Shown here: positions 1 through 13,493 of the stretch, piece after piece
Position numbering within the stretch: the stretch's first letter is position 1
How the letters are laid out: each line of letters starts with the position of its first letter
Source: a virus
Taxonomy: Duplodnaviria; Heunggongvirae; Uroviricota; Caudoviricetes
Virus record (IMG/VR): IMGVR_UViG_2690316346_000006
Span: 1 to 13,493 of that record
DNA: 13,493 nucleotides
Reading direction: 5' to 3' (one strand)
Program-made: the position numbers and the translations under genes
Notes under the pieces: generated by a model
The model's input: only the letters and a program-made list of their open reading frames with translations
The model's database searches: none
Told to the model about the DNA's origin: nothing

Positions 1-51
1 ATCGGGCATTATCTGAACATAAAACACTATCAATAAGTTGGAGTCATTACC
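1..51 (+). mobile_element. IS1 terminal fragment (insB-proximal end including the terminal inverted repeat); body of the element lies upstream of the window
   Basis: Positions 1-51 are the exact reverse complement of 9926-9976 and 13443-13493, and match the remembered IS1 end ...CATCGGGCATTATCTGAACATAAAACACTATCAATAAGTTGGAGTCATTACC. Confidence 0.85.
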
Positions 52-183
52 AAACGGTTGAAATGTATGCCGCTACTTACGGGTCCTGTAATCCTCTGAA
101 TAAACCAGAGGGAAAAGATGATTTCGACAAAATTTACCGCTTCTTGGAGGACCGCTATATCAAAAGCTTAGAGGACGCAGGGA

Positions 184-561
184 TCAAATCCCCAGTGAAG
201 TCACCATTGTCCTGAGAACTTGCAGAACGTCATGATCATAACTTCCATCCAAACCGCGACGGCGAATTGCTTCTCGTATTACCGGAAGCAGTTCGCTGGA
301 AATCTCGGTGCATATTTCACCTGATAATACGCTTGGCTCAAGTGAGAATATTGGTGAACTTACGGTCTTGGTCTCGACAGTTTCAGAGTCAGTGCCAACA
401 TTATAAAGCTCAACGAAAGCGGTCTTGATTTTCCGGGCCAGATCTTTTGCTGGCTCGCTTGCAATATCTTTCCCGATTTCTCGCAGCACAGAATGCAATG
501 TATGAGCTGCTGTTTTCTGTACATCAGACGGTAAATCTTTAAATTCCATCGTCAGCCTCAT
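184..561 (-). CDS. hypothetical protein, 125 aa, second gene of a coupled two-gene operon
   Basis: ORF track. Its ATG (559-561) overlaps the stop of the upstream ORF (561-563) as ATGA on the minus strand. An alternative ATG at 547-549 has a GAGG 8 nt upstream. No recognisable motif. Confidence 0.5.
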   Translation of the reverse strand: MRLTMEFKDLPSDVQKTAAHTLHSVLREIGKDIASEPAKDLARKIKTAFVELYNVGTDSETVETKTVSSPIFSLEPSVLSGEICTEISSELLPVIREAIRRRGLDGSYDHDVLQVLRTMVTSLGI

Positions 562-767
562 CAGTCAGTGTTTCTGGCTAACCAGCAACGCGCGCCAGAT
601 TCGGTTTTAAACGTTTTGCTTTTGGTATACGTCATGGCGGTAAACGTTCCATCCTGGTTAGGGAACACGCCGCACACCAGAGATTCGTTGTTGCCAAGAT
701 CGATAGTATCCATGCTGACCTCATTTCCCCTTAACGCCGGGGTGGCGGAACAAAAAACCTGCTGCAT
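561..767 (-). CDS. small hypothetical protein (68 aa as listed; more likely about 50 aa from the internal ATG at 711-713)
   Basis: The internal ATG is preceded on the minus strand by TGAGGTcagcATG, a good Shine-Dalgarno; the listed start at 767 has none. Coupled via ATGA to the downstream ORF. Confidence 0.45.
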   Translation of the reverse strand: MQQVFCSATPALRGNEVSMDTIDLGNNESLVCGVFPNQDGTFTAMTYTKSKTFKTESGARCWLARNTD

Positions 768-953
768 AGTTAAAGATTGAACCCTGCCGTCATGTTCTTA
801 CGCCTCGGGCTGGCTACTTAACCCCTGACCACTGTCTGGTAACTCGAAGTATTGCCCTGCATTCTGTGGGGCGGGGTGGGTTGACGCCTGAAACAATAGC
901 ATCATTATTTTTTTTGATGTAAATAGCATCGCTATTGTTTTTTGTTGGGGCAA

Positions 954-976
954 GAAAAAACCACCCTAAGGTGGTT
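954..976 (-). terminator. rho-independent terminator for the minus-strand repressor/antitoxin/toxin transcript
   Basis: Plus strand reads aaaaaACCACCctaaGGTGGTT. On the minus strand this is a 7-bp stem with a 4-nt loop followed by a U-run, about 20 bp after the ParE-like stop at 993. Confidence 0.55.
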
Positions 977-992
977 CTGTCGGCGGGAATAA

Positions 993-1283
993 TTAACTGT
1001 TTTTGCCTGGATACTGTCTTCGAGAATGCACAATATTTACTACTTCTATGCTTGATGCTGTTACTCGGTAAAGGATGATGTAGTTAGGATGAGTTACAAT
1101 TTCACGAAGACCAAGAACTCGCTCGCTTGGAGGATACAGGTAAGGATGCTCTGTGAGCGGCAAAACGGATGTTTCAATTCGAATTTTCATTCTGCGTGCT
1201 GCCGCGGGATTTTCTTTAGCTATGTAGGCTACGATCTGGCGCAAATCATCACGAGCAGATGGTAGCCATAAAACGGGTAACAT
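993..1283 (-). CDS. parE: type II toxin, ParE/RelE superfamily
   Basis: 96 aa; sequence pattern (LPVLWLPSARDDL ... REIVTHPNYIILYRV ... VVNIVHSRRQYP) is typical of ParE-family toxins. Start overlaps the antitoxin stop (TAATG on the minus strand). Confidence 0.75.
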   Translation of the reverse strand: MLPVLWLPSARDDLRQIVAYIAKENPAAARRMKIRIETSVLPLTEHPYLYPPSERVLGLREIVTHPNYIILYRVTASSIEVVNIVHSRRQYPGKNS

Positions 1284-1477
1284 TATTCACCTCTGTGAGT
1301 TGCAGCAGCAATTTGGGCAATAATTTGTTCCATTTCCGCCATTACCTCATCATGCGGAATCGCCGGGCGGGGATCCGCGAGGCTTGCTGCTACTTTGGCC
1401 CGCAGCCATTCGTTGTAACTATTTTCTTGCTCAACTGTCTCAAATTCTGAAACCATTGGGGAAAGGACTGTACTCAT
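1283..1477 (-). CDS. paaA: small antitoxin, PaaA2-like, partner of the ParE-like toxin
   Basis: 64 aa, directly upstream of and overlapping the toxin gene. Segment SPMVSEFETVEQENSYNEWLRAKVAASLADPRPAIPHDEV matches my recollection of PaaA2 from the O157 paaR2-paaA2-parE2 system. AGGAGA lies 10 nt upstream of the ATG. Confidence 0.65.
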   Translation of the reverse strand: MSTVLSPMVSEFETVEQENSYNEWLRAKVAASLADPRPAIPHDEVMAEMEQIIAQIAAATHRGE

Positions 1478-1496
1478 TTTACATATCTCCTCTGAT

Positions 1497-1997
1497 TTAG
1501 GCGCGACGGCCTTTTTGTGCAGCTAACCACCGCGCAACCGTACGATCCATTGATTCTTTTTTATCTTTCATCTCCTGAAGCATGTGTTCTTGATCTTCTT
1601 TCGGAAAAGCTCTGAACGTATGGATTAAATCTCGTTCCATCGGCTCTACGGCAAACGGTAGTTCATCCTCTGTTTGTTCTGTGTCTGCTGGTAATGCGAC
1701 TATGTTATCTTGCTGTGGTTCTCGACAATACATCCTTGCAATTTGCAGCAAATCTACCATGTCTGGCCTGATTGACTCAGGGGGAACTTTCAGTAAGCCA
1801 GCAAACTTTAGAACAGCCTCAAGGTTTAGTGGGGTTTGACCATTTAGGTAGTGACTTACCGCCCCTTGTGTTGAAAACCCCATAATTTCCGCCGCACGTT
1901 CCTGAGTCAATCCCAACTGAGATTTCTTTGCCATCCAGATTTCTTTCAGTCTTCTGGCGGCGTTGAGGTCGGTGTCTGACAATGATTTTCTTTTCAT
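1497..1997 (-). CDS. cI-like HTH (XRE-family) repressor, probably PaaR2/RacR-like; ORF track extends to a GTG at 2027
   Basis: HTH motif region QLGLTQERAAEIMGFSTQGAVSHYLNG. Sits divergent to a Cro-like gene with a palindromic operator between them. The ATG at 1995-1997 (MKRKSL...) is favoured over the GTG at 2027, which has no Shine-Dalgarno. Confidence 0.7.
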   Translation of the reverse strand: MKRKSLSDTDLNAARRLKEIWMAKKSQLGLTQERAAEIMGFSTQGAVSHYLNGQTPLNLEAVLKFAGLLKVPPESIRPDMVDLLQIARMYCREPQQDNIVALPADTEQTEDELPFAVEPMERDLIHTFRAFPKEDQEHMLQEMKDKKESMDRTVARWLAAQKGRRA

Positions 1998-2027
1998 ACA
2001 TCCAATTCTAATAAGATTGCTAATCAC

Positions 2028-2108
2028 TTTGAAATAGTATCACTATTTACTTTTAAAAATAACAGTGCTATTAATTATGCATTGGTAACACATCACATAG
2101 GGCGGATT
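2028..2108. promoter_or_regulatory. divergent promoter/operator region between the repressor and the Cro-like gene; contains the palindrome AAATAGT-atc-ACTATTT (2032-2048)
   Basis: AT-rich 81-bp intergenic region between divergently oriented HTH genes. A perfect 7-bp inverted repeat with a 3-bp spacer is read directly from the sequence. Confidence 0.55.
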
Positions 2109-2372
2109 ATGAATCTTGGAGAATATTTGCATCATTTTCATATAACCCAGAGTTCATTTGCTGAGATTGTTGGCGCATCCCAAGGGATGGTCAGCCACGT
2201 TATAACGGGGCGTGCAAAACTTACAGGAGAAAAAATATTACGTTGGTGTGAAGCAACGGGATGGGTGGTGACCCCACATGAGATTGACAGTAAAACCTAC
2301 CCCAACCCAACTGACGGCTTGCCTGCTGAGTTTCAGGCTAACACACAACCATCGGCGGGGGTTGATTCATGA
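2109..2372 (+). CDS. ydaS: Cro-like HTH regulator (YdaS-like); ORF track start 2082, internal ATG at 2109 preferred
   Basis: HTH motif region ITQSSFAEIVGASQGMVSHVITG. Divergent from the repressor. GGGCGG lies 5 nt upstream of the ATG at 2109. Confidence 0.65.
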   Translation: MNLGEYLHHFHITQSSFAEIVGASQGMVSHVITGRAKLTGEKILRWCEATGWVVTPHEIDSKTYPNPTDGLPAEFQANTQPSAGVDS

Positions 2373-2794
2373 AAATCAAGCATGAACACATCCGCATGGC
2401 GATGAAAGCCTGGGCGCATCCGGACGGTGAAAAAGTTCCGGCAGCTGAAATAACCAGGGTTTATTTCGAACTGGGAATGACGTTTCCGGTTCTGCATAAC
2501 GACAGCAAGCACAACACGCTTTATCTCAACACCCAAAAGATTTTCCGTTGGCTGGATAAAGACACCCCTGACGCTGTTGAAAAAATTCAGGCGTTGTTAC
2601 CTGCGATCGAAAGGGCAATGCCACCTCCGCTGGTGGCTCGAATGCGCAGCCACAGTTCAGCTTATTTTCGGGAACTGGTGGAGACGCATGAACGACTGGT
2701 GAGAGACGCTGATGATTTTGTCGCAGTGGCAATCGCCGGTTTCAATCAGATGAACCGTGGTGGCCCGGCAGGAAATGCTGTGGCAGTACATTGA
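2369..2794 (+). CDS. ydaT: YdaT-like protein (proposed CII-like switch component in Rac-type prophages)
   Basis: 141 aa beginning MKIKHEH..., which matches my recollection of the YdaT N-terminus. Start overlaps the Cro-like stop (ATGA), indicating coupling. Confidence 0.5.
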   Translation: MKIKHEHIRMAMKAWAHPDGEKVPAAEITRVYFELGMTFPVLHNDSKHNTLYLNTQKIFRWLDKDTPDAVEKIQALLPAIERAMPPPLVARMRSHSSAYFRELVETHERLVRDADDFVAVAIAGFNQMNRGGPAGNAVAVH

Positions 2795-2865
2795 CTGACA
2801 ATAGCCATATCGAATCGCTCCCGGCAACTCGTGAGTAAAAAGATTCGGTATCAGAAGAGGTGAGT

Positions 2866-3930
2866 ATGGCTAACGCCTGGCTCAGATTATGGCATGACAT
2901 GCCAAATGACCCTAAGTGGCGAACAATTGCCAGGGTGTCAGGGCAGCCAATTGCAACAGTGATGGCAGTGTATATCCACCTCCTGGTGAGCGCGTCACGA
3001 AATGTCACGCGAGGTCACATTGATGTCACGACAGAAGATTTGGCAAGTGCGCTCGACGTGACAGAAGAGGTAATTGATTCAATTTTGCAGACGATGCAGG
3101 GGCGGGTACTTGATGGTGATTTAATCACTGGATGGGAAAAACGCCAGGTGCTTAAAGAGGACAACGGCAATATTTCGCAAACCGCAAAATCTCCTGCAGA
3201 GCGCAAGAGGGCGCAGCGAGAGAGGGAAAGAAAGCGGGAACAAAATGGCGATTGTCACGGCGCGTCACGAAATGTCACGCACATGTCACGACGAGTCACG
3301 ACAGATACAGATAAAGATACAGATAAAGAAGATCAAAACACTATGGTCCATGGCGTAAAAAACGCCACGAACCAGGCAGGGGATGTTCAGACCGTCAATC
3401 CTGGTCAGCCAGCAGGCTCGACACCGGAAGCCGATTCAGCGTATGCGCTGAAAGCCGATTCGGGCGCTGTGCAGCAGGTGATGACCGCAAGGCCGGAGCA
3501 ATCACTCCAACTGCAGCAGCCTGAAGCCGATTCCGCCATTCAGCGGGAAGCCGATCGGGTAGCCCCGGAAAACACCGGGCAGCCTGTGGGACGAGTGGAT
3601 TATCCGGATGTGTTCGAACAGGTCTGGCGGGAATACCCGTTGCGTGCCGGGGCAAACCCGAAGAAATCCGCATTCAGTGCCTGGAAGGCCAGATTGCGCG
3701 AGGGGGTGCCACCAGAGACCATGCTGGATGGTGTGAGGCGTTACGCGAGATACCTGGCGGCGACCGGGAAAGCGGGAACGGAATTTGTTCAGCGAGCGAC
3801 GACGTTTTTTGGGCCGGACCGGAATTTTGAAAACCCCTGGTTGCTCCCGGTAAGCGGCACGAACAACCAGCGTTGTGTGAATCATATTTCTGAACCGGAT
3901 ACCGAAATTCCGCCGGGATTCAGGGGGTGA
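2866..3930 (+). CDS. phage replication initiator 1 (O-like / YdaU-like), with origin iterons embedded in the coding sequence
   Basis: ATG at 2866 preceded by GAGGTG (track start GTG 2860). Lies immediately upstream of a DnaC-like gene. Contains two clusters of GTCACG direct repeats. C-terminus ends IPPGFRG, as in the second initiator. Confidence 0.7.
   Translation: MANAWLRLWHDMPNDPKWRTIARVSGQPIATVMAVYIHLLVSASRNVTRGHIDVTTEDLASALDVTEEVIDSILQTMQGRVLDGDLITGWEKRQVLKEDNGNISQTAKSPAERKRAQRERERKREQNGDCHGASRNVTHMSRRVTTDTDKDTDKEDQNTMVHGVKNATNQAGDVQTVNPGQPAGSTPEADSAYALKADSGAVQQVMTARPEQSLQLQQPEADSAIQREADRVAPENTGQPVGRVDYPDVFEQVWREYPLRAGANPKKSAFSAWKARLREGVPPETMLDGVRRYARYLAATGKAGTEFVQRATTFFGPDRNFENPWLLPVSGTNNQRCVNHISEPDTEIPPGFRG
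2993..3030 (+). repeat. iteron cluster 1 of putative origin 1: four GTCACG/GTCAC repeats at 10-11 bp spacing
   Basis: Repeats begin at 2993, 3003, 3014 and 3025, read directly from the sequence. Confidence 0.6.
3254..3300 (+). repeat. iteron cluster 2 of putative origin 1: five GTCACG repeats at 10-11 bp spacing, followed by an ACAGATA-rich AT-rich stretch
   Basis: Repeats begin at 3254, 3264, 3274, 3285 and 3295. The roughly 45-bp unit is near-identical to cluster 1. Confidence 0.6.
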
Positions 3931-3936
3931 TGTGGC

Positions 3937-4683
3937 ATGAAAAACATTGCGGCAGCCGGGGTTCTTGAACGTATTCACAGACTTGCACCACAGGGGGCGG
4001 TTCCACCGTACCGGACGGTGGAGGAGTGGCGGGAATGGCAACTTGCTGAAGGACGAAAACGCAGCGAGGAGATTAACCGCCAGAATCGCCAGTTGCGGGT
4101 GGAAAAAATCCTGAATCGTTCGGGCATCCAGCCTCTGCACAGCAAATGCTCGTTTGCGAATTATCAGGTGCAGAACGACGGGCAAAAATACGCGCTGAGC
4201 CAGGCCAAATCCATAGCTGACGAACTGATGACCGGGTGCACGAATTTTGTGTTCAGCGGTAAAACCGGCACCGGGAAAAATCACCTTGCAGCGGCGATGG
4301 GTAACCGGCTGATGGCGAAGGGGCGCAGCGTGATTATCGTCACCGAGTCTGATGTCATGAGCGTGTTGCATGACAGCTACGACAACGGCAAATCCGGTGA
4401 AAAATTTTTACAGGAGCTTTGCGGGGTTGATTTGCTGGTCCTGGATGAAATAGGCATTCAGCGGGAGACGAAAAACGAGCAGGTGGTATTGCACCAGATA
4501 ATTGATCGCCGGACAGCATCACTGTGCAGTGTCGGGATGTTAACAAACCTGAATCATGCCGCAATGAGCACGCTTCTTGGTGAGAGGATTATGGACCGCA
4601 TGACCATGAACGGTTGTCGGTGGGTGACGTTTAACTGGGATAGCTGGCGTTCAAATGTCAGCTTTCCGGGAGTTGTGAAGTAA
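3937..4683 (+). CDS. DnaC-like helicase loader (YdaV-like), copy 1
   Basis: 248 aa with Walker A-like SGKTGTGKNHLAAA and Walker B-like DLLVLDEIG, as in DnaC. Follows the initiator with 6-bp spacing. Confidence 0.85.
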   Translation: MKNIAAAGVLERIHRLAPQGAVPPYRTVEEWREWQLAEGRKRSEEINRQNRQLRVEKILNRSGIQPLHSKCSFANYQVQNDGQKYALSQAKSIADELMTGCTNFVFSGKTGTGKNHLAAAMGNRLMAKGRSVIIVTESDVMSVLHDSYDNGKSGEKFLQELCGVDLLVLDEIGIQRETKNEQVVLHQIIDRRTASLCSVGMLTNLNHAAMSTLLGERIMDRMTMNGCRWVTFNWDSWRSNVSFPGVVK

Positions 4684-4704
4684 TTTTTGTTGGAGGATGT
4701 TTTA

Positions 4705-5430
4705 ATGGAAACTGTATTTGACGCACTGAAAGCACTGAAAAGAGCCTCTTCACATGTGGTGGCGTCCCGCCTTGGAATCAGCCGTGAAGATGCGGTCAAC
4801 GAACTGTGGAAACTGAAGCGCCGTGGTGAAGCGGATAACAAGGGTTCGATGTGGTGGCTGATTCAGGCTGGTGAAAGTGAACCAGTGTCACCGGTACCGA
4901 AAGTGACAGCGCAAATGCTGACTGAGGCGATTGAACAACATGGCCCACAAACGGCGGATGAGCTGGCACTGATGTTCGGGATTACCTCCCGCCGGGCGAA
5001 TTCATCGCTGGCCATGGCAATCAGCAAAGGGCGTCTGATTCGCGTGAATCAGGGCGGTAAATTTCGGTACTGCATACCGGGCGCTGATTTACCGGCAGAG
5101 CCGAAAGCCGCATCCATAGCGGAAACGGATGGTAAAGTCTTTCCTCAGCCAGCAGGTGTTGCGTTACCGGTACAGGAAGCTGCAACACAGGAAGAAATTA
5201 AAACAGAAACTGTGGCGGACATTGTGCAGTCGTTGCCATCGTTCACCGAAACGCAAGCGGATGACCTGGTTTTACCATCGCTGCATATGGCAAACCGCGA
5301 ACTGCGTCGGGCGAAAAGTCATGTCCAGAAGTGGGAGCGTGTCTGCGCCGCGTTGCGGGAGCTGAACAAGCACCGGGATATTGTTCGACAGATTGTCGAT
5401 TCCTCCGGTCGTATTGTGTCGGAAAAGTGA
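4705..5430 (+). CDS. hypothetical protein, possibly YdaW-like; present only in module 1
   Basis: ORF track lists a TTG start at 4687; the ATG at 4705 has GGAGG 8 nt upstream. No catalytic motif recognised. Confidence 0.55.
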
Positions 5431-5445
5431 TTGCCGGGGGCGCTT

Positions 5446-5868
5446 ATGGCAAAAGTATTTACACAGGAAGAGCGGGAAAAAATTAAGGGGCAGGTTGTTG
5501 AACTCGTACGCCAGAGTGGGCGCGAGACGTTACGACAACTGGAAGCTAAAACCGGGGCGACAAGATATTTAATAAGCGTTCTCGCCAGAGAGCTGGTTGC
5601 CAGTGGGGATGTATACAACTCTGGCTACGGGTTATTCCCGTCTGAACAGGCTCGTAAGGACTGGCAAAACGCCCGCAAAAAACTCTCGAGGGCAAAGCTG
5701 AAGAAACCATCTGTGGTTGATCCGGACCTTATCTGGTCATTACCGGACGGAGAAATACGCCGCTACGACAGACATCAGAACATAATCTGTCGCGAGTGCC
5801 GGAAGAGTGAAGTTATGCAGCGTGTACCGGCTTTCTATCAGGGTGATTTTCAGGAGGCGGTACTGTGA
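5446..5868 (+). CDS. hypothetical protein (about 140 aa), paralog of 9117-9539
   Basis: ATG at 5446 preferred over the listed TTG at 5431. The C-terminal ~90 aa are near-identical to the 9117-9539 product; the N-terminal ~50 aa are diverged. Confidence 0.6.
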   Translation: MAKVFTQEEREKIKGQVVELVRQSGRETLRQLEAKTGATRYLISVLARELVASGDVYNSGYGLFPSEQARKDWQNARKKLSRAKLKKPSVVDPDLIWSLPDGEIRRYDRHQNIICRECRKSEVMQRVPAFYQGDFQEAVL

Positions 5869-6282
5869 GTGAAATTAGCTATCAGGCTTCAATTACCGCT
5901 GGCATTCGCATCAAAGGAGAGGAGCATGGAAATAAAACCAGAAGATGAGTTAAGCAATATTGTTTTATTTCCGGTAAAAGAGGATAACCCTCGTAATCAG
6001 GTTAATTTTCTTTATGAGCCATCGGAAAGACCATATTGCCATCACGCTTCTGTCCGGGTTGACGAAAAAGAGCGTCAGGTCCGCTGTAAAATCTGCGGTG
6101 CGGTTGTGGAGCCGTTTGACTGGATGCTCTCTGTGGCGAAAAGAGAAACCAGACTGGCAGATGATGTAAGGCTCTTGCGCCAGGAGGAGCGGGAAAGGCG
6201 AAAAAATATAGAAAAGCTAATCCAGATTGAGCGTAACGCGAAAGCGCGGATACGCAGGGCGACAAAATCCAGAACTGAATAA
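5869..6282 (+). CDS. hypothetical small protein with a putative zinc-ribbon motif (C-H-H ... C-x2-C); copy A
   Basis: Listed start is GTG at 5869. An internal ATG at 5926 has a strong Shine-Dalgarno (AAGGAGaggagcATG) and gives 118 aa. Motif YCHHASVRVDEKERQVRCKICG. Two further copies lie at 9540-9925 and 10695-11035. Confidence 0.6.
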   Translation: MKLAIRLQLPLAFASKERSMEIKPEDELSNIVLFPVKEDNPRNQVNFLYEPSERPYCHHASVRVDEKERQVRCKICGAVVEPFDWMLSVAKRETRLADDVRLLRQEERERRKNIEKLIQIERNAKARIRRATKSRTE

Positions 6283-6309
6283 TTAAATTTAGCACTGTTA
6301 AAAATTTAA
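6283..6309. repeat. AT-rich palindrome TTAAATTT-N11-AAATTTAA immediately after the stop of the zinc-ribbon gene; repeated at 11036-11062
   Basis: Read directly from the sequence; present after copies A and C, and homology between them ends just beyond it. Confidence 0.4.
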
Positions 6310-6421
6310 TCCTTAATAACCTTTTTATTCTTTGCCACGGGTTCCGTGGCGGGAGATTATGCCGCGTGAACATGAAGATGAGGTGTACTGGCAATAGCGG
6401 ACACTACCATTTGTTCTTTTT

Positions 6422-7240
6422 TTAAGCAGCCATCTGATGATATTTTTCCCTGAAGGCTGCCGGGGAGATATTCCCCAGACGAGAGTGACGACGCTGACGA
6501 TTGTAGAAAATCTCAATGTATTCCCGTATTACTGAGATGGCTTCATCCCGGTTATTAAAACGATAGTGGCTCAGGCTCTCATTTTTCAGCGTTCCCCAGA
6601 AGCTTTCCATCGGAGCGTTGTCGTAACAGTTACCTTTACGCGACATTGATGTTTTCAGACCAGACTGCTCCTGTATGACCCGGTAATCGTATGCGCAGTA
6701 CTGTGAACCTCGATCAGAGTGGTGGATTAGCCCGGCAGGTGGGCGCTGGCTCCTGAGCGCCATAAACAGGGCTTTACCTGTCAGCTCTTTTGTCATGCGC
6801 TCTCCCATGGCGTAGCCGACAATTTCGCACGTATAAACATCTTTGATGCCAGCGAGGTACAACCATCCCTCCTGTGTGGCAACATACGTCAGGTCCGCCA
6901 CCCAGACCTGATTTGGTGCTGTAGGAGCGAACGTCTGGTTCAGCAGATTTGGCGCAACTGGCAGATTGTGGTTCGAGTTCGTAGTCGCTCTGAACTTGCG
7001 TTTCTGCTTACAGCGTAGCCTTAGCTCCTTACGAAGACGTGCCAGTCGGTCACGACCAACGATGATGCCATTCTCTGCCAGCTCCGTCTGGAGCCGCCGG
7101 GTTCCATATGTTTCGCGAGTGCGGATATGTGCCACCTTAATCTCCAGTTTTAGCCGCTCATCACTTTGTTTTCTGTCTGAGGGTTCATGCTGTACCCAGT
7201 TGTAATAACCGCTCCTGGATACACCAAATACCTGACACAT
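6422..7240 (-). CDS. IS3-family transposase OrfB (DDE catalytic part), expressed as an OrfAB fusion by -1 frameshifting
   Basis: 272-aa ORF with DDE-type transposase signatures (HSDRGSQY ... conserved acidic residues) in the -1 frame relative to orfA. Confidence 0.8.
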   Translation of the reverse strand: MCQVFGVSRSGYYNWVQHEPSDRKQSDERLKLEIKVAHIRTRETYGTRRLQTELAENGIIVGRDRLARLRKELRLRCKQKRKFRATTNSNHNLPVAPNLLNQTFAPTAPNQVWVADLTYVATQEGWLYLAGIKDVYTCEIVGYAMGERMTKELTGKALFMALRSQRPPAGLIHHSDRGSQYCAYDYRVIQEQSGLKTSMSRKGNCYDNAPMESFWGTLKNESLSHYRFNNRDEAISVIREYIEIFYNRQRRHSRLGNISPAAFREKYHQMAA

Positions 7241-7275
7241 CGCTTCAATGGGAAATTGTTGTCGCCATTGTTCGA

Positions 7276-7578
7276 TTAACGCGTATTTTTCAGCGACTCC
7301 TGTGCAAAATACGCTGTTGCTTTTTTTAATATATCTCGCTCAAGGCGAGCTTCATTTAACGCCTTACGCAGTTGCAGAATTTCAGATTCCAGTTCAGCCA
7401 CCGTGCGGGAACCAGGAGTACCGAGCCCTTTTCTGGCGGCGGTAACCCATTGTCCTAAAGTGCCTTCAGGAAGAGATAATCGGGAAGCGCCTTCACTGAT
7501 CGAAAGTTGATTTTCAAGAACCGTTCTGACAGCTTCGGCTTTGAACTCTTTAGAGTAACGTTGGGTTTTTCTGCTCAT
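7276..7578 (-). CDS. IS3-family transposase OrfA (HTH part)
   Basis: 100 aa, MSRKTQRYSKEFKAEAVRTV..., which I recognise as IS600/IS3-group OrfA. Confidence 0.8.
   Translation of the reverse strand: MSRKTQRYSKEFKAEAVRTVLENQLSISEGASRLSLPEGTLGQWVTAARKGLGTPGSRTVAELESEILQLRKALNEARLERDILKKATAYFAQESLKNTR
7320..7327 (-). promoter_or_regulatory. programmed -1 ribosomal frameshift site (A AAA AAG) within the orfA/orfB overlap of the IS3-family element
   Basis: Minus-strand sequence TTAAAAAAAGC lies where orfA and orfB overlap, as is typical of IS3-family elements. Confidence 0.6.
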
Positions 7579-7698
7579 TATTAGCTCCTTCTGATGCCAT
7601 TCTATTTCAGGAAGGAGTGTCCGTTAAACTCAGGCTACCTCAGGTTATTCGCTTCTGGGCATGGGCGGATCAACAAATGATAGACGGTAATGCAGATT

Positions 7699-7950
7699 GT
7701 AACGCTCGCGGCGTTACAAAAAGTGCAATAGATCGCATCACTTTTATGTCTGGTTTTGCTGATGCGTTAATTCAGGTTGGATGGCTGGTCGAAAATGACG
7801 GAGGGCTTTCTCTACCTAACTTTGAACGTCATAACGGAAAAAGCTCTAAAAAAAACGGGCGGTTACAAACGAGCGAGTAACAAAAATACGCGAACTGAAA
7901 CGAAAAGGTAACGCTGCCAGCGTTACACAAACGGATCAAAAAGCGTTACC
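7699..7950 (+). repeat. putative origin 2 binding sites: two copies of the palindrome GTAACGC-N5-GCGTTAC (7699-7717, 7908-7926) plus half-sites at 7862-7866 and 7943-7949
   Basis: Read directly from the sequence. Located inside the linker-coding region of initiator 2, analogous to the iterons inside initiator 1 but of a different sequence. Confidence 0.45.
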
Positions 7951-7952
7951 AG

Positions 7953-8000
7953 AGGAAGAGGAAGAGGAAGAGGAAGAGGAAGAGGAAGAGGAAGAGGAAG
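7953..8000 (+). repeat. perfect tandem hexanucleotide repeat (AGGAAG)8; encodes Glu16 in the frame that appears to be coding for the initiator 2 linker
   Basis: 48 bp of uninterrupted AGGAAG units counted directly from the sequence. Confidence 0.9.
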
Positions 8001-8355
8001 ATCTAAATACTGATCTCCCCCTCGCCAAAAACGAGCGTCTAAAAAATTCGAGCCGGAGGCTATTGAGCTGCCCGATTGGTTGCCGGAAACACTCTGGCAT
8101 GAGTGGGTCCGGTTCAGACAGGCATTGCGAAAACCGATTCGAACGGAGCAGGGCGCTAACGGGGCGATACGGGAACTGGAAAAATTCCGTCAGCAGGGTT
8201 TTACACCTGAGCAGGTGATTCGACACAGCATCGCCAATGAATACCAGGGCCTGTTCGCGCCGAAAGGTGTTCGGCCTGAGACGTTGCTCCGACAGGTTAA
8301 CACCGTCTCGTTGCCGGACAGTGCGATCCCGCCAGGCTTCAGGGGGTAACGGACC

Positions 8356-9102
8356 ATGAAAAATATTGCGACAGGCGGCGTTCTGGAACGCATCCGCCGA
8401 CTGACCCCGCCACATGTAACCGCCCCATTCAGAACGGTAGCGGAGTGGCGCGAGTGGCAACTTGCTGAAGGCCAGAAACGTAGCGAGGAGATCAACCGCC
8501 TGAATCGCCAGTTGCGGGTGGAAAAAATTCTGAATCGCTCAGGCATCCAGCCGTTGCACCGTAAATGCTCGTTTGCGAATTACCAGGTGCAGAACGACGG
8601 CCAGCGATACGCGTTAAGCCAGGCGAAATCCATCGCCGATGAACTGATGACCGGGTGTACAAATTTTGCGTTCAGCGGAAAACCTGGTACCGGGAAGAAT
8701 CACTTAGCGGCAGCTATCGGGAATCGCCTGCTGAAAGACGGTCAGACAGTGATTGTGGTTACCGTGGCTGATGTTATGAGCGCCCTGCACGCCAGCTATG
8801 ACGACGGGCAGTCAGGCGAAAAATTTTTGCGGGAGCTGTGCGAAGTGGATCTGCTGGTTCTTGATGAAATTGGCATTCAGCGCGAGACGAAAAACGAGCA
8901 GGTGGTGCTGCACCAGATTGTTGATCGCCGGACAGCGTCGATGCGCAGCGTGGGGATGCTGACAAACCTGAACTATGAGGTGATGAAAACATTGCTCGGC
9001 GAGCGGGTGATGGATCGCATGGTCATGAACGGCGGGCGCTGGGTGAATTTTAACTGGGAGAGCTGGCGTCCGAATGTTAGCCATTCGAGGGTTGTTAAGT
9101 AG
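8356..9102 (+). CDS. DnaC-like helicase loader, copy 2 (roughly 85% amino-acid identity to copy 1 by eye)
   Basis: 248 aa with SGKPGTGKNHLAAA and DLLVLDEIG motifs; same length and architecture as 3937-4683. Confidence 0.85.
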   Translation: MKNIATGGVLERIRRLTPPHVTAPFRTVAEWREWQLAEGQKRSEEINRLNRQLRVEKILNRSGIQPLHRKCSFANYQVQNDGQRYALSQAKSIADELMTGCTNFAFSGKPGTGKNHLAAAIGNRLLKDGQTVIVVTVADVMSALHASYDDGQSGEKFLRELCEVDLLVLDEIGIQRETKNEQVVLHQIVDRRTASMRSVGMLTNLNYEVMKTLLGERVMDRMVMNGGRWVNFNWESWRPNVSHSRVVK

Positions 9103-9116
9103 TTTCAGGAGGATTT

Positions 9117-9539
9117 ATGGCGAAACCTTTTACTCCCGAACAGCGGGAAGAACTGAAGACGCGAATTGTGGAACTCGTGCATCAGGACGGTCGGGTCACG
9201 ATTCGGCAGTTGTCAGATGAAACAGGTATCAGTCGTGCGTCTGTCGGTCGCTTATGCATAGAACTGGTCGCAAGTGGTGATGTATATAATTCTGGCTACG
9301 GCTTATTCCCGTCTGAACAGGCTCGCAAGGACTGGCAAAGCGCCCGCAAAAAACTCTCGAGAGTAAAGGTGAGGAAACCGGTTGTTGTTGATCCGGACCT
9401 TATCTGGTCATTACCTGACGGAGAAATACGCCGCTACGACAGGCGCCTGAATATAATCTGTCGCGAGTGCCGGAAGAGCGAAGCTATGCAGCGTGTACTG
9501 GCTTTCTATCAGGGTAATTTTCAGGAGGCGATACTGTGA
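9117..9539 (+). CDS. hypothetical protein, paralog of 5446-5868 with a diverged N-terminus
   Basis: 140 aa; C-terminal region (ELVASGDVYNSGYGLFPSEQARKDWQ ... IICRECRKSE ...) nearly identical to copy 1. Confidence 0.6.
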   Translation: MAKPFTPEQREELKTRIVELVHQDGRVTIRQLSDETGISRASVGRLCIELVASGDVYNSGYGLFPSEQARKDWQSARKKLSRVKVRKPVVVDPDLIWSLPDGEIRRYDRRLNIICRECRKSEAMQRVLAFYQGNFQEAIL

Positions 9540-10007
9540 ATGAAATTAGCTATCAGGCTTCAATTACCGCTGGCATTCGCATCAAAGGAGAGGAGCATGG
9601 AAATAAAACCAGAAGATGAGTTAAGCAATATTGTTTTATTTCCGGTAAAAGAGGATAACCCACGTAATCAGGTTAATTTTCTTTATGAACCATCGGAAAG
9701 ACCATATTGCCATCACGCCTCTGTCCGGGTTGACGAAAAAGAGCGTCAGGTCCGCTGTAAAATTTGCGGTGCAGTTGTGGAGCCATTTGACTGGATGCTC
9801 TCTGTGGCGAAAAGAGAAACCAGACTGGCAGATGATGTAAGGCTATTGCGCCAGGAGGAACAGGAAAGGCGGAGAAATATAGAAAAGCTGATACAGATTG
9901 AGCGTAACGCGAAAGCGCGGATACGCGGTAATGACTCCAACTTATTGATAGTGTTTTATGTTCAGATAATGCCCGATGACTTTGTCATGCAGCTCCACCG
10001 ATTTTGA
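9540..10007 (+). pseudogene. zinc-ribbon small gene copy B, 3'-truncated at 9925 by IS1; the ORF reads on into IS1, giving a chimeric 26-aa tail
   Basis: Homology to copy A ends exactly at the IS1 end (...gcgcggatacgc|ggtaatgac). Translation continues ...ARIR then [26 protein letters not shown] from the IS1 sequence. Confidence 0.7.
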
Positions 10008-10445
10008 GAACGACAGCGACTTCCGTCCCAGCCGTGCCAGGTGCTGCCTCAGATTCAGGTTATGCCGCTCAATTCGCTGCGTATATCGCTTGCTGATTAC
10101 GTGCAGCTTTCCCTTCAGGCGGGATTCATACAGCGGCCAGCCATCCGTCATCCATATCACCACGTCAAAGGGTGACAGCAGGCTCATAAGACGCCCCAGC
10201 GTCGCCATAGTGCGTTCACCGAATACGTGCGCAACAACCGTCTTCCGGAGACTGTCATACGCGTAAAACAGCCAGCGCTGGCGCGATTTAGCCCCGACAT
10301 AGCCCCACTGTTCGTCCATTTCCGCGCAGACGATGACGTCACTGCCCGGCTGTATGCGCGAGGTTACCGACTGCGGCCTGAGTTTTTTAAGTGACGTAAA
10401 ATCGTGTTGAGGCCAACGCCCATAATGCGTGCAGTTGCCCGGCAT
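9942..10445 (-). CDS. insB: IS1 InsB (expressed as an InsAB' fusion by frameshifting)
   Basis: 167 aa, ...[62 protein letters not shown]..., recognised as IS1 InsB. Confidence 0.9.
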
Positions 10446-10639
10446 CCAACGCCATTCATGGCCATATCAATGATTTTCTGGTGCGTACCGGGTTGAGAAG
10501 CGGTGTAAGTGAACTGCAGTTGCCATGTTTTACGGCAGTGAGAGCAGAGATAGCGCTGATGTCCGGCAGTGCTTTTGCCGTTACGCACCACCCCGTCAGT
10601 AGCTGAACAGGAGGGACAGCTGATAGAAACAGAAGCCAC
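10364..10639 (-). CDS. insA: IS1 InsA
   Basis: 91 aa, [42 protein letters not shown]..., recognised as IS1 InsA. Confidence 0.9.
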
Positions 10640-10694
10640 TGGAGCACCTCAAAAACACCATCATACACTAAATCAGTAAGTTGGCAGCATCACC

Positions 10695-11035
10695 AAGATG
10701 AGTTAAGCAATATCGTTTTATTTCCGGTAAAAGAGGATGACCCTCGTAATCAGGTTAATTTTCTTTATGAGCCATCGGAAAGACCATATTGCCATCACGC
10801 CTCTGTACGGGTTGACGAAAAAGAGCGTCAGGTCCGCTGTAAAATCTGCGGTGCGGTTGTGGAGCCGTTTGACTGGATGCTCTCTGTGGCAAAAAGAGAA
10901 ACCAGACTGGCAGATGATGTAAGGCTATTGCGCCAGGAGGAACAGGAAAGGCGGAGAAATATAGAAAAGCTGATACAGATTGAGCGTAACGCGAAAGCGC
11001 GGATACGCAGGGCGACAAAATCCAGAACTGAATAA
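10695..11035 (+). pseudogene. zinc-ribbon small gene copy C, 5'-truncated (lacks the first ~5 codons); mosaic of copies A and B
   Basis: Begins abruptly at the IS1 end with aagatgagttaagc..., matching codon 6 onward of copy A. Its 5' half carries copy-A-type variants and its 3' half copy-B-type variants. Stop at 11033-11035. Confidence 0.65.
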
Positions 11036-11104
11036 TTAAATTTAGCACTGTTAAAAATTTAATCCTTAACCGGAGGGATTTCTGCACCCTCAAATCATCA
11101 GGAG

Positions 11105-11122
11105 ACCGCCCGAAAGGGCGGT
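11105..11122 (+). other. stable GC-rich hairpin with a GAAA tetraloop (ACCGCCC-gaaa-GGGCGGT), 5 nt upstream of the ATG at 11128
   Basis: Read directly from the sequence. No U-run follows, so it is not a canonical terminator; it could occlude a ribosome-binding region or stabilise an mRNA. Confidence 0.4.
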
Positions 11123-11127
11123 AATGA

Positions 11128-11346
11128 ATGGTTACATTATTTAGAAAAAAATATCCGCGAAAGAGTAGAACAACAGAATTCCTGTTTCTCATTCTGTTTA
11201 TCGTGTTGATGACACCGATATCCCCGCTAATTTTTGTCTGGATAATCGGAAAAATAATTGAGCCAGTTATTGAATTGTATAACGACGTGGTATGGGCGTC
11301 ATTCAACACACTGCACAATAAAATTAATCCGTATAAGGAAAGCTGA
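11128..11346 (+). CDS. small hydrophobic (probably membrane) protein, 72 aa
   Basis: ORF track; hydrophobic core FLFLILFIVLMTPISPLIFVWIIG. No clear Shine-Dalgarno, so the call is tentative. Confidence 0.35.
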   Translation: MVTLFRKKYPRKSRTTEFLFLILFIVLMTPISPLIFVWIIGKIIEPVIELYNDVVWASFNTLHNKINPYKES

Positions 11347-11713
11347 TATGGCACTGACGAAAAAACAACGTGCAGAACTGCGCATGAAGTTCGGTGGTCG
11401 CTGCGCTTATTGCGGCTGCGAACTTGGCGAAAAGTGGCATGCAGACCATGTAAAACCGGTCATTCGTTTTGATGGAAATATGCTTCACCAGGAACGTGAC
11501 GATATATCCAACATGGTACCAGCATGCCACCCATGCAATCTGCACAAGCATTGCAGTAGCCTGGAAGATTATCGACGAATTATCAGTGATGGTCGTCGTG
11601 AATTCCTTGCGTCCGGGAAAGGCAAAGCGCTGGTTCGTATGGGATTGGTTGAAATGAAATCTGACCCGGTTGTGTTCTGGTTTGAAAAATATCAAGAAGG
11701 GGCTACGGCATGA
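11347..11713 (+). CDS. HNH endonuclease
   Basis: ATG at 11347 with AAGGAAA upstream (ORF track extends to 11258). Motifs CAYCGC ... HADH ... N ... ACHPCNLHKH are typical of HNH nucleases. Confidence 0.75.
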
Positions 11714-12375
11714 CCACTATTACCAAAGAGCGACTGCAATGGCTGGCTAACATTTCTGGCCGCGATGATATTGACGATATAGACGGCGGTGAAATTCGTG
11801 AACTGGCGCTTATCGCTCTGGCATCACTGGAAGCAGAGCCTGTAGCGGAATGCATTGTTGAAGATGGGGGCATGTGTATTGACGGGTTCGGTGAGTATGT
11901 GGGTCACTCGCTGCCTGATGGAATGCATGAGCTTTATGCTGCCCCGCGAATGCGACAACCTGATGGATGGAAAGCCGTAGCTGTAGCGTGGAAGGTGACG
12001 TTTACTCAAGTTGACCAGGAATCTAATACGTTCACTGCTATATATTTTGACAAAGCGGAAGTTGAGTGTTGGGTACGACTGCATAAAGCATGTGATTTTC
12101 GGGCAGATATAACACCGCTTTACGCAGCGCCGGCAGTGCCGGTTGCAGTAAACGACGACATGGCTTACGCATTCCATCACGCACTGTCAGATTCATCGCT
12201 TGGCTCTGATGAAATCGAAGAAATTAAAACCGGTTTGCGTGCTGCCTTTGCCAACGTCACTATCCAACCAGAGCCGATAGTGCCGGATGAAATCGGGCCA
12301 AACGATAGTAATACGTTTGATTATGTTGATGGCTGGAACGCCTGCCGCGCTGCCATGCTTAAGGGAGATAAATAA
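11710..12375 (+). CDS. hypothetical phage protein, 221 aa, acidic
   Basis: ORF track; start overlaps the HNH stop (ATGA). No motif recognised. Confidence 0.6.
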   Translation: MTTITKERLQWLANISGRDDIDDIDGGEIRELALIALASLEAEPVAECIVEDGGMCIDGFGEYVGHSLPDGMHELYAAPRMRQPDGWKAVAVAWKVTFTQVDQESNTFTAIYFDKAEVECWVRLHKACDFRADITPLYAAPAVPVAVNDDMAYAFHHALSDSSLGSDEIEEIKTGLRAAFANVTIQPEPIVPDEIGPNDSNTFDYVDGWNACRAAMLKGDK

Positions 12376-12740
12376 TGATTAATCGAACCAAACTGGAGCA
12401 CATTCTCGAATATGCCAGGCAGCAGAAATGTATTGGGCAACTTTGTAAAATTCCACCAGGAGATATGGTTGAAATCGTGGAAATGGCCATGCGTAAGGCT
12501 GGCAACTCTCCGGTAGCTCCGGCTGGCTGGATAAGCTGTAGTGATGCAGTTCCTGCTGAATATTGCGATGTGATTCTTCTCGATGATCTCGGGAATGTAT
12601 TCCCCGGTTCCTGGGATAAGGTTTTTTGCCCCACTCGTGGCGGGAATAAGATGGCTTTTGTGGACAAAGACGGCGTTGAAGTAGAGAGCTCAACTCACTG
12701 GATGCCGCTACCGGAACCACCGCAGGAGGTGAATCAATGA
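12375..12740 (+). CDS. hypothetical phage protein with a DUF551-like C-terminus
   Basis: 121 aa; WISCSDAVP ... THWMPLPEPP resembles the DUF551 signature as I recall it. Confidence 0.6.
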   Translation: MINRTKLEHILEYARQQKCIGQLCKIPPGDMVEIVEMAMRKAGNSPVAPAGWISCSDAVPAEYCDVILLDDLGNVFPGSWDKVFCPTRGGNKMAFVDKDGVEVESSTHWMPLPEPPQEVNQ

Positions 12741-12820
12741 CCTGGCCTGAGGCATTCACCACGGTAGGAATTGCGATGGCGGTGGCGCTGGTGGTGTATT
12801 CGATTTGCCGTTGGGGTTAA
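12737..12820 (+). CDS. unlisted small ORF, 27 aa (MTWPEAFTTVGIAMAVALVVYSICRWG), predicted single transmembrane helix
   Basis: Perfect Shine-Dalgarno AGGAGGTGA 6 nt upstream of the ATG at 12737. Start overlaps the upstream stop (ATGA). A rho-independent terminator follows immediately. Below the length cut-off of the ORF track. Confidence 0.5.
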   Translation: MTWPEAFTTVGIAMAVALVVYSICRWG

Positions 12821-12825
12821 CAAAC

Positions 12826-12857
12826 AAAAACCCCGGATTGATGGTCCGGGGTTTTTG
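12826..12857 (+). terminator. rho-independent terminator (AAAAA-CCCCGGA-ttgatgg-TCCGGGG-TTTTT), potentially bidirectional
   Basis: 7-bp GC-rich stem, 7-nt loop and a T5 run, read directly from the sequence; 6 bp after the stop of the small ORF. Confidence 0.8.
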
Positions 12858-13195
12858 AAGGAAACAAAACAGAAACAGCAATTGCCGTTACCTGTTGTTA
12901 CCATGGCAAGTAAACGTATCTCAGGCGAGCGCATTGCGCCGTTCTGACGCAGATAAACTAGCCTGGATAGATGGTGCTGGCAATAAAAAATAGCGTTTTC
13001 TTATCGGTGTCGGTAAGATTGCTGCGGGTGCTTGAGGCTGTCTGCCTCGGGTATGTCACTGTAAGGCAGACAGAGAAAAGCCCCAGTTAACATTACGCGT
13101 CCTGCAAGACGCTTAACATTAATCTGAGGCCCAATCTATGTCTCACAAATGTAGGTTAGCCTCTTACGTGCCGAAAGGCAAGGAGAAGCAGGCTA

Positions 13196-13350
13196 TGAAG
13201 CAGCAAAAGGCGATGTTAATCGCCCTGATCGTCATCTGTTTAACCGTCATTGTGACGGCACTGGTAACGAGGAAAGACCTCTGCGAGGTACGAATCCGAA
13301 TCGGCCAGACGGAGGTCGCTGTTTTCGTAGACTACGAATCTAGAGAGTAA
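13196..13350 (+). CDS. hok: Hok/Gef-family type I toxin (closest by memory to HokD/RelF or HokC)
   Basis: MKQQKAMLIALIVICLTVIVTALVTRKDLCEVRIRIGQTEVAVFVDYESRE; AAGGAG lies 9 nt upstream of the ATG at 13196. The ORF track extends in frame to an ATG at 13138. Confidence 0.85.
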
Positions 13351-13442
13351 GAGTGACCAGGCGGGAGAGTAATCTCCCGCCACCTTTGATGTGTCAGGCA
13401 TCCTCAACGCACCCGCACTTAACCCGTTTCGGCGGTTTTTTT

Positions 13443-13493
13443 GGTAATGACTCCAACTTATTGATAGTGTTTTATGTTCAGATAATGCCCGAT
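13443..13493 (-). mobile_element. IS1 terminal fragment (insB-proximal end), element in minus orientation with its body downstream of the window
   Basis: Identical to 9926-9976 and the exact reverse complement of 1-51. Confidence 0.85.

Follow-up and report, generated by a model that had tools for sequence, protein, structure and literature searches.

Does the 13.4-kb stretch of prophage DNA lying between two inverted IS1 ends form a unit that could move or invert, or do these ends simply mark where a contig stops? The window (the whole stretch of DNA analyzed, 13,493 bp) closes on positions 13443-13493, which are the exact reverse complement of positions 1-51 and are also identical to positions 9927-9977, within a complete internal IS1. 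The initial annotation had described the two edges as inverted, insB-side IS1 ends, and this was confirmed: both stubs represent the insB-proximal inverted repeat of IS1 (GGTAATGACTCCAACTTATTGAT...) and abut the segment with the body of the element directed outward, so that only 51 nt of each flanking IS1 are present in the contig. The exact inverted terminal match is 54 nt (1-54 and 13440-13493) rather than 51 nt because three non-IS1 bases (AAA/TTT) agree as well. Judged from the sequence, an exact repeat of 51 nt cannot have arisen by chance.

The window corresponds to the entire contig CXEQ01000138.1 (range 1-13493) of the draft Shigella sonnei assembly GCA_001258815.1 (in the GTDB taxonomy, S. 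sonnei sits within E. coli), and both IS1 stubs are therefore contig ends. The same contig was the single record returned by an exact look-up of the junction protein encoded at 9597-10007 in its 136-aa form, and the 155-aa long form of this ORF had no match on protein look-up. The fallback offered in the initial annotation, namely that a contig of an IS1-rich genome simply breaks off at IS1 repeats, thus proved right. In this short-read assembly, the inverted 51-nt stubs would be the places where unique sequence could not be carried on into a high-copy repeat, and the 54-nt exact terminal overlap would be the residue expected of de Bruijn assembly at k = 55; we infer both the assembler and this k-mer value for GCA_001258815.1. 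Overall, we consider it quite likely that the contig ends at a common repeat and is a mis-joined mosaic of three prophage remnants.

To place its parts, the window was compared by BLAST with loci from complete S. sonnei genomes (designated by L numbers), and core-gene neighbors within 10 kb were noted. Three prophage segments (A, B and C; Table 1) each have different core-gene neighbors within this distance and represent three separate prophage sites, a separation that rests on these neighbors across loci. Segment A encodes DUF1391, ParE/PaaA2, cI-like and cro-like regulators, YdaT, a replication initiator, YdaV, DUF1627 and DUF977, and its zinc-ribbon gene (5869/5926-6282) is intact. In L001, L004 and L006, a prophage at the Qin site, with ydfI on one side and ynfE-H on the other, shows 99.8% identity to positions 1-6286, and L005 matches the window only over 1-5070. 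From about 6237, segment A switches to the paralog type of B and C. The short stretch that follows (6306-6379) matches with 100% identity a single place between yiaD and bisC in 5422/5426 complete E. coli genomes, and base-by-base inspection of the junction showed that this 73-bp fragment is joined to the prophage via an 11-bp overlap, TTAATCCTTAA (6306-6316).

Table 1 Features of the window (contig CXEQ01000138.1).
Feature	Coordinates	Strand	Basis and remarks
Left IS1 stub	1-51	+	Last 51 nt, insB-proximal end; body left of contig; contig end
Prophage segment A, lambdoid early region	52-6305		Identity to complete-genome locus and Pfam
yiaD-bisC intergenic fragment, 73 bp	6306-6378	+	Core-chromosome match
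IS600 (IS3 family), 1264 bp	6379-7642	-	TGAGGT...ACCTCA ends; Pfam HTH_Tnp_1 and rve
Prophage segment B	7643-9926	+	Contiguous with IS600 in L012-L014
Repeat R, left copy	9613-9926	+	Mosaic of C-type and A-type variants
Complete IS1 (IS1A type)	9927-10694	-	768 bp; without target duplication in the window
insB	9942-10445	-	Pfam DDE_Tnp_IS1 6e-78
insA	10364-10639	-	Pfam Zn_ribbon_InsA 1e-21, HTH_Tnp_IS1 5e-31
Prophage segment C	10695-13442	+	Complete-genome loci near ttcA/dbpA; Pfam
Repeat R, right copy	10695-11008	+	B-type variants, yet all sequence downstream is C-type
Right IS1 stub	13443-13493	-	First 51 nt, insB-proximal end; body right of contig; contig end

The IS600 of the window is 100% identical to IS600 copies at the S. 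sonnei loci, and RefSeq calls the equivalent element of L036 IS600. It is flanked by AGA and GGT, without a 3-bp target duplication. At the junction of IS600 with segment B, the duplication GGT is found in L012 and L013 and is absent in L014 and the window; to the left of the shared IS600, L014 is unlike L012 and L013. In all three loci IS600 and segment B are uninterrupted, within a prophage adjoining modABC/acrZ whose zinc-ribbon gene is intact and IS1-free, and the window matches L014 at 100% over 6379-7971 and at 99.5% over 7981-9926. Segment B comprises the remnant of a replication initiator that carries an (AGAGGA)n array, as well as YdaV, DUF977 and a zinc-ribbon gene truncated at 9926. 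Segment C holds the 3' part of a zinc-ribbon gene, DUF4014, an HNH endonuclease, a 221-aa protein, DUF551 and hok. Together with the internal IS1 it is contiguous (9927-13493) at 99.8-99.9% in eight loci at ttcA/dbpA, the Rac site (L021-L023, L025-L027, L029 and L030); in L024 and L028 the match starts at 9929 (99.7-99.9%), with an IS600 abutting the IS1. Proteins flanking in segments B and C were found in 6560 and 3693 blocks, respectively, mostly on 2-5-kb contigs.

Complete genomes also reveal what lies beyond the two stubs. At the left junction of the window stands a full 768-bp IS1, which in L001 and L005 is flanked by a 9-bp duplication of its own, CAACCGTTT; a single-copy empty site is found in L003 and L007. 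Four alleles of this left-hand locus are related by IS1-IS1 deletion, with the deletions carried by L004 and L006. The right IS1 is full in L021-L025 and L027-L030 and cut at nt 203 in L026; it stands in place of 133-135 bp found in IS-free homologs and has no duplication. Judging by these homologs, the right IS1 is an insertion accompanied by a deletion of ~135 bp. The left IS1, the IS1 to the left of segment C and the right IS1 are independent events and not one composite insertion, because they have separate footprints (a 9-bp duplication, a 10-bp duplication and the ~135-bp replacement). The left and right copies lie at different prophage loci in complete genomes and do not bound one contiguous 13-kb segment, a pattern of separate flanking insertions that the initial annotation had itself named as speaking against its proposed unit.

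The internal IS1 shares the orientation of the right-hand stub, as first described, but starts at 9927 and not at 9926. It is 100% identical to elements annotated IS1A by RefSeq, its terminal inverted repeats (GGTAATGACTCCAACTTATTGAT and GGTGATGCTGCCAACTTACTGAT) agree at 18/23 positions, and its coding strand carries the A6C frameshift motif TTAAAAAAC at about window position 10388. Its flanks in the window (CGGATACGC on the left and AAGATGAGT on the right) form no 9-bp target duplication; in eight complete genomes, the same right-hand IS1|C junction carries a 10-bp duplication, AAGATGAGTT. The absence of a duplication bears on the join within the window and not on the identity of the internal element as IS1. 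The B|IS1 junction (9926/9927) reads ...GCGCGGATACGC|GGTAATGAC. An assembler could hardly have invented this junction, so a genuine strain-specific (private) IS1 insertion beside one of the zinc-ribbon gene copies is probable.

The internal IS1 is bordered by a diverged 314-bp direct repeat (R; 97.1% identity between copies), whose paralogous variants are shuffled among three gene copies (A, B and C). Ten diagnostic positions in R are discordant, of which six are reciprocal swaps (A with B at 6093/6102/6114 versus 9764/9773/9785; B with C at 9662/9689/9725 versus 10744/10771/10807) and four are not reciprocal. All nine mismatches of segment B to the B reference fall in the left copy of R. From the pattern of variants, the reciprocal swaps would fit mis-threaded paralogs better than gene conversion. 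A fourth paralog (D) carrying IS1 was also considered as the source of 9613-9926, and none was present among the complete-genome loci retrieved.

These observations suggest that the sequence between the IS1 ends is probably a mis-joined mosaic. The contig path would lead from the Qin-site prophage (A) through the yiaD-bisC scrap and IS600 to the prophage at modABC (B), and from there through IS1 to the one at the Rac site (C), with each switch placed at a repeated element or within a near-identical paralogous gene. A gap-filler may have produced the 11-bp splice. On the actual chromosome, separate and independent insertions in different prophage remnants would account for the flanking IS1 copies. 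All internal joins are anomalous: IS1 and IS600 lack duplications, the R repeats are shuffled, the splice has an 11-bp overlap and the junction protein is unshared. Among about 15 billion proteins, the fusion protein (9597-10007) was found in no other assembly, and the copy-1 variant of the zinc-ribbon protein was found in no other assembly within S. sonnei; elsewhere, the latter was carried by only three contigs (from two assemblies source-labeled E. coli and one Logan read-run contig), in different surroundings. Eight IS1 fusion proteins, modeled on the reference copies of A, B and C with IS1 at the 9926 site, were likewise not on record. According to the authors of a widely used pipeline, scaffolding and gap-filling steps are greedy and may create false joins (PMC5320598). 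We infer that assembly error, and not strain-specific rearrangement, produced the internal joins. IS elements without duplications are, however, not proof of assembly error, because S. sonnei genomes themselves show IS-mediated rearrangement (L014; L004 and L006).

Alternatively, the contig could be faithful, with a private IS1 insertion, IS1-IS1 and IS600-IS600 recombination, paralog exchange and microhomology joining having fused the three remnants and the yiaD-bisC scrap into a 13.4-kb mosaic that, flanked by inverted IS1 copies, could invert through homologous recombination. IS expansion and between-strain IS variation are documented for Shigella (PMC7373316), IS-mediated structural variation is seen at the same loci (the four alleles of the left-hand locus and the left flank of IS600 in L014), and some reads must back the B|IS1 junction. 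However, this reading requires five independent anomalies within 5 kb, among them reciprocal swaps of individual variants between three dispersed paralogs and the splicing of a 73-bp core fragment by 11-bp microhomology. Moreover, the junction proteins recur in no other assembly, and short-read contigs usually end at IS1 and IS600, as the window does at its own ends. We therefore regard a faithful contig as unlikely.

It is also conceivable that only the part from the internal IS1 across segment C to the right IS1 (9927 to beyond 13493) matters, as a Tn9-like arrangement of direct copies that could be lost or could transpose. The IS1-C-IS1 layout does exist, with 99.7-99.9% conservation across ten complete S. 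sonnei genomes, and IS1-IS1 deletions of precisely this type are seen at the neighboring left-hand locus. The deletion of the HNH and hok region between direct copies, as initially proposed, would accordingly be sound in principle in terms of sequence layout. Against the Tn9-like reading, the left copy of this pair is flanked by a 10-bp duplication of its own and the right one is associated with a deletion, indicating two separate events in place. In a non-exhaustive search, no genome was found that lacked the HNH/hok block or carried it elsewhere, and we give this reading very little weight. That the whole 13.4-kb segment is a composite transposon moved as a unit by the outer ends of an inverted IS1 pair is supported only by the geometry of the inverted ends at both edges, and can practically be discounted, given that the left copy is a simple insertion and the right copy an insertion with deletion in a different prophage, that complete genomes show no single duplication around the unit, that no complete E. 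coli genome, plasmid or phage record matched it with at least 80% coverage (partial prophage and IS matches only), leaving it with no second context, and that the outer ends would be insA-proximal and lie outside the window. The composite-transposon-like or invertible unit suggested in the initial annotation is not supported by the placement of the two IS1 copies in complete genomes.

There is no evidence that the 13.4-kb segment ever moved as a unit. The main lesson is one of caution: when a draft contig from an IS-rich genome such as that of Shigella begins and ends in IS stubs, whether inverted or direct, this is the expected footprint of assembly, and contigs running through full IS copies should be suspected before they are read biologically. 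What is biologically real at these loci is already well known: lambdoid prophages are eroded by independent insertions of IS1 and IS600, and IS1-IS1 deletions vary between strains.

Compared with known systems, the internal element is the same as IS1 (IS1A) of Escherichia coli and Shigella in size, insA, insB, A6C motif and repeats; unlike the usual IS1, the copy in the window lacks a 9-bp duplication and links two different paralogous contexts. Tn9 is an IS1-flanked composite transposon with direct IS1 copies. As in transposons of this type, passenger genes in the window are bracketed by IS1, and the copies around the HNH/hok block are direct; in contrast to them, each IS1 of the window has its own footprint, and there is neither a duplication around the unit as a whole nor a second location. 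The window also resembles contigs with repeat-induced breaks in short-read assemblies of IS-rich genomes, as both of its ends run into a high-copy IS for a fixed distance and stop. As for repeat-induced false joins, the window switches only at IS elements or inside paralogs that are 93-97% identical, and its junctions are unique to one assembly; the B|IS1 junction (9926/9927), however, is hard to make without real reads, and a private IS1 insertion probably contributes. The three segments themselves resemble the defective lambdoid prophages of Rac and Qin type in E. coli K-12 and Shigella, with which they share both sites (ttcA, ydfI/ynfE and modABC) and gene content (ydaS/T/U/V/W-like genes, DUF977, hok and ParE/PaaA2), and differ in that the copies in the window show heavy erosion by IS1 and IS600, a typical trait of S. 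sonnei.

Blast comparison of the window with loci fetched from complete genomes (each given an L number, as in L001) split it into three pieces. At the ydfI/ynfE site, L005 matches window positions 1-5070 only (99.96%), and the finished genomes continue downstream of segment A into a BsuBI/PstI-type restriction-modification system, not into IS600. The zinc-ribbon gene of the modABC/acrZ prophage is intact and without IS1. On the K-12 map the three sites are Qin (A), the lambda-attachment region (B) and Rac (C). Two further segment C loci, L024 and L028, match from position 9929 at 99.7-99.9%. In both (locus ~6955-8220) the IS1 preceding segment C lacks its first 2 nt and directly adjoins IS600, while the other eight genomes have 139 bp of the zinc-ribbon gene between the two elements; the abutment represents one more IS-mediated deletion allele at this place.

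Pieces and features of the window, with their place in finished genomes
Feature	Positions (strand)	Description
Segment A and left IS1 stub	1-6286	99.8% to the prophage between ydfI and ynfE-H/dmsD/clcB (L001, L004, L006)
ParE toxin/PaaA2 antitoxin pair	993-1477 (-)	Intact; segment A, adjoining a cI-like repressor
21-nt direct repeat	2990-3010 and 3260-3280	270 bp apart, inside the 356-aa replication-initiator gene
Short tandem repeats	3253-3329	TGTCACGACA x5 and ACAGAT x4.8, inside the same 356-aa gene
yiaD-bisC intergenic piece	6306-6378	73 bp, between prophage sequence and IS600
IS600 and segment B	6379-9926	Contiguous in the prophage adjoining modABC/acrZ (L012-L014)
Hexamer array	7951-8001	Perfect (AGAGGA)x8.5, replication-initiator remnant of segment B
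Junction protein	9597-10007	Zinc-ribbon gene into internal IS1
Internal IS1, segment C and right stub	9927-13493	Contiguous, 99.8-99.9%, at eight complete-genome loci (L021-L023, L025-L027, L029, L030) adjoining ttcA/dbpA/zntB (core neighbours where in view, most loci)
hok/gef-family toxin gene	13138-13350	93 bp from the right IS1

Looking up the junction protein by exact sequence returned one record, the 13493-bp contig CXEQ01000138.1 (assembly GCA_001258815.1), whose proteins are labelled Shigella sonnei. Because this record spans range 1-13493, both window ends are contig ends. The fallback offered by the initial annotation, contig boundaries at IS1 repeats, was therefore correct: the window is a full contig, and its IS1 stubs are certainly assembly break points. 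The exact inverted IS1 ends at 1-51 and 13443-13493 were also rightly recognized, the match being far beyond chance. Bases 1-51 are likewise the exact reverse complement of 9927-9977, the repeated sequence being the insB-proximal inverted repeat of IS1, and the window ends agree over 54 nt, as the three bases adjoining each IS1 tip (AAA/TTT) match too. Such ends would be expected from a de Bruijn assembler (k = 55) in which two unique TTT-ending flanks enter one repeat. No IS is more abundant in Shigella than IS1 (PMC7373316), and other draft assemblies break likewise: 2489 of 3693 blocks for the 221-aa protein encoded in the HNH/hok block (the segment C genes) lie on contigs of 2-5 kb, the spacing of the two IS1 copies around that block, and 633 of 792 blocks for the left-end protein lie on contigs of 5-10 kb.

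The internal IS1 is present and oriented as the right stub, with the left stub inverted, as first described, but it occupies 9927-10694, starting one base later than had been given. It is 768 bp long and 100% identical to RefSeq-named IS1A elements; insA and insB, with strong Pfam matches, are encoded on the minus strand, and the element also has the A6C frameshift motif and terminal repeats matching at 18/23 positions. No target duplication surrounds it in the window (left flank CGGATACGC, right flank AAGATGAGT); instead, one gene segment is present in a 314-bp copy on either side of it (9613-9926 vs 10695-11008, 9 mismatches). When the three zinc-ribbon gene copies were compared position by position with the A, B and C references, variants proved to be shuffled: the copy after IS1 had B-type bases at 10744, 10771 and 10807 and the copy before it C-type bases at 9662, 9689 and 9725. 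Similarly, copy 1 was B/C-type at 6093, 6102 and 6114 and from 6237 on, and copy 2 was A-type at 9764, 9773 and 9785; at four more positions of copy 2 (9632, 9657, 9809 and, less clearly, 9725) the base was again A-type, here with no matching exchange elsewhere. In all sequence beyond these repeats, agreement with the references was near-perfect. The yiaD-bisC piece (6306-6379 is found at 100% in 5422/5426 E. coli genomes) is spliced to prophage sequence via an 11-bp overlap, TTAATCCTTAA, and IS600 is flanked by AGA and GGT, hence no duplication; in L012 and L013 this element has GGT on either side. The junction protein and eight modelled IS1 fusion proteins occurred in no other assembly, and the copy-1 zinc-ribbon protein variant in no other assembly within S. 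sonnei.

The best reading, and one we hold to be probable, is that the contig interior is mis-joined, since every switch occurs at an IS element or within paralogs of 93-97% identity, and the variant discordances consist mostly of reciprocal swaps that fit mis-threading of a repeat graph better than gene conversion. Mis-threading among the paralogs would exchange variants between zinc-ribbon copies in this way. The 11-bp splice of a tiny core fragment beside an IS end has the appearance of greedy gap closure; GapFiller merges at an overlap of ~10 nt. False joins can arise from SSPACE and GapFiller, according to the authors of one common pipeline (PMC5320598). One junction, from ...GGATACGC into GGTAATGAC, would be hard for an assembler to create and probably stems from a genuine IS1 insertion, private to this strain, next to one of the gene copies. 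IS-mediated variation is real at these loci (L014, L004, L006) and speaks for a genuine strain-specific mosaic, which we nevertheless consider unlikely.

In finished genomes, the IS1 copies have left footprints that all but rule out a true composite transposon. On the left, IS1 went in by simple insertion, with the 9-bp duplication CAACCGTTT in L001 and L005, and the site is empty in L003 and L007. In eight genomes the copy preceding segment C is flanked by a 10-bp duplication of its own, AAGATGAGTT, and the intact target is seen in the IS-free E. coli prophage L036. Around the right IS1 there is no duplication, and 133-135 bp that L017 and L036 retain are missing at its site, so it is an insertion with an adjacent deletion. 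The three copies are independent events. The flanking two are independent insertions at different loci in finished genomes of the species and, because the left and right junctions here are identical to those, we infer the same for this isolate. The composite-transposon-like or invertible 13.4-kb unit of the initial annotation is thus not supported as a real feature: independent insertions are the result which that annotation had itself set down as refuting a composite unit, and the comparison of target duplications proposed there, with one at the left copy and none at the right, speaks against it. In the complete genome of L026 (CP151301.1) the right IS1 breaks off at nt 203 (locus 11734-11936 onward), and what follows is a Mu-like prophage with transposase A/B, Gam and other genes; this IS1 was apparently the target of a Mu-type phage.

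Just left of window base 1 on the chromosome, L001, L004, L005 and L006 represent four structural alleles of complete S. sonnei genomes (locus 10511-13290). Removing a 2012-bp piece, made up of exactly one IS1 and 1244 bp with a Rha-like gene, from L005 gives L004, and its removal from L001 gives L006. Because both pairs differ by this exact piece, recombination between direct IS1 copies has indeed caused loss of DNA in some strains. The IS1-HNH/hok-IS1 sub-unit with direct copies is real and conserved, and was assembled in place through two separate events. The suggested loss of the HNH/hok region by recombination between its direct IS1 copies could occur.

Beyond the hok/gef gene lies a terminator-like GC-rich stem whose T-run ends exactly at the right IS1 tip; in IS-free homologues ~135 bp follow, whose place the IS1 took. 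The (AGAGGA) region is 18 bp shorter in L012 and 30 bp shorter in L014, judged from alignment lengths, so that copy number varies between strains. None of the components is new, IS1A, IS600 and the Rac/Qin-like prophage remnants in S. sonnei all being known, and the repeats of the segment A replication-initiator gene resemble the origin iterons inside lambdoid O-type genes.
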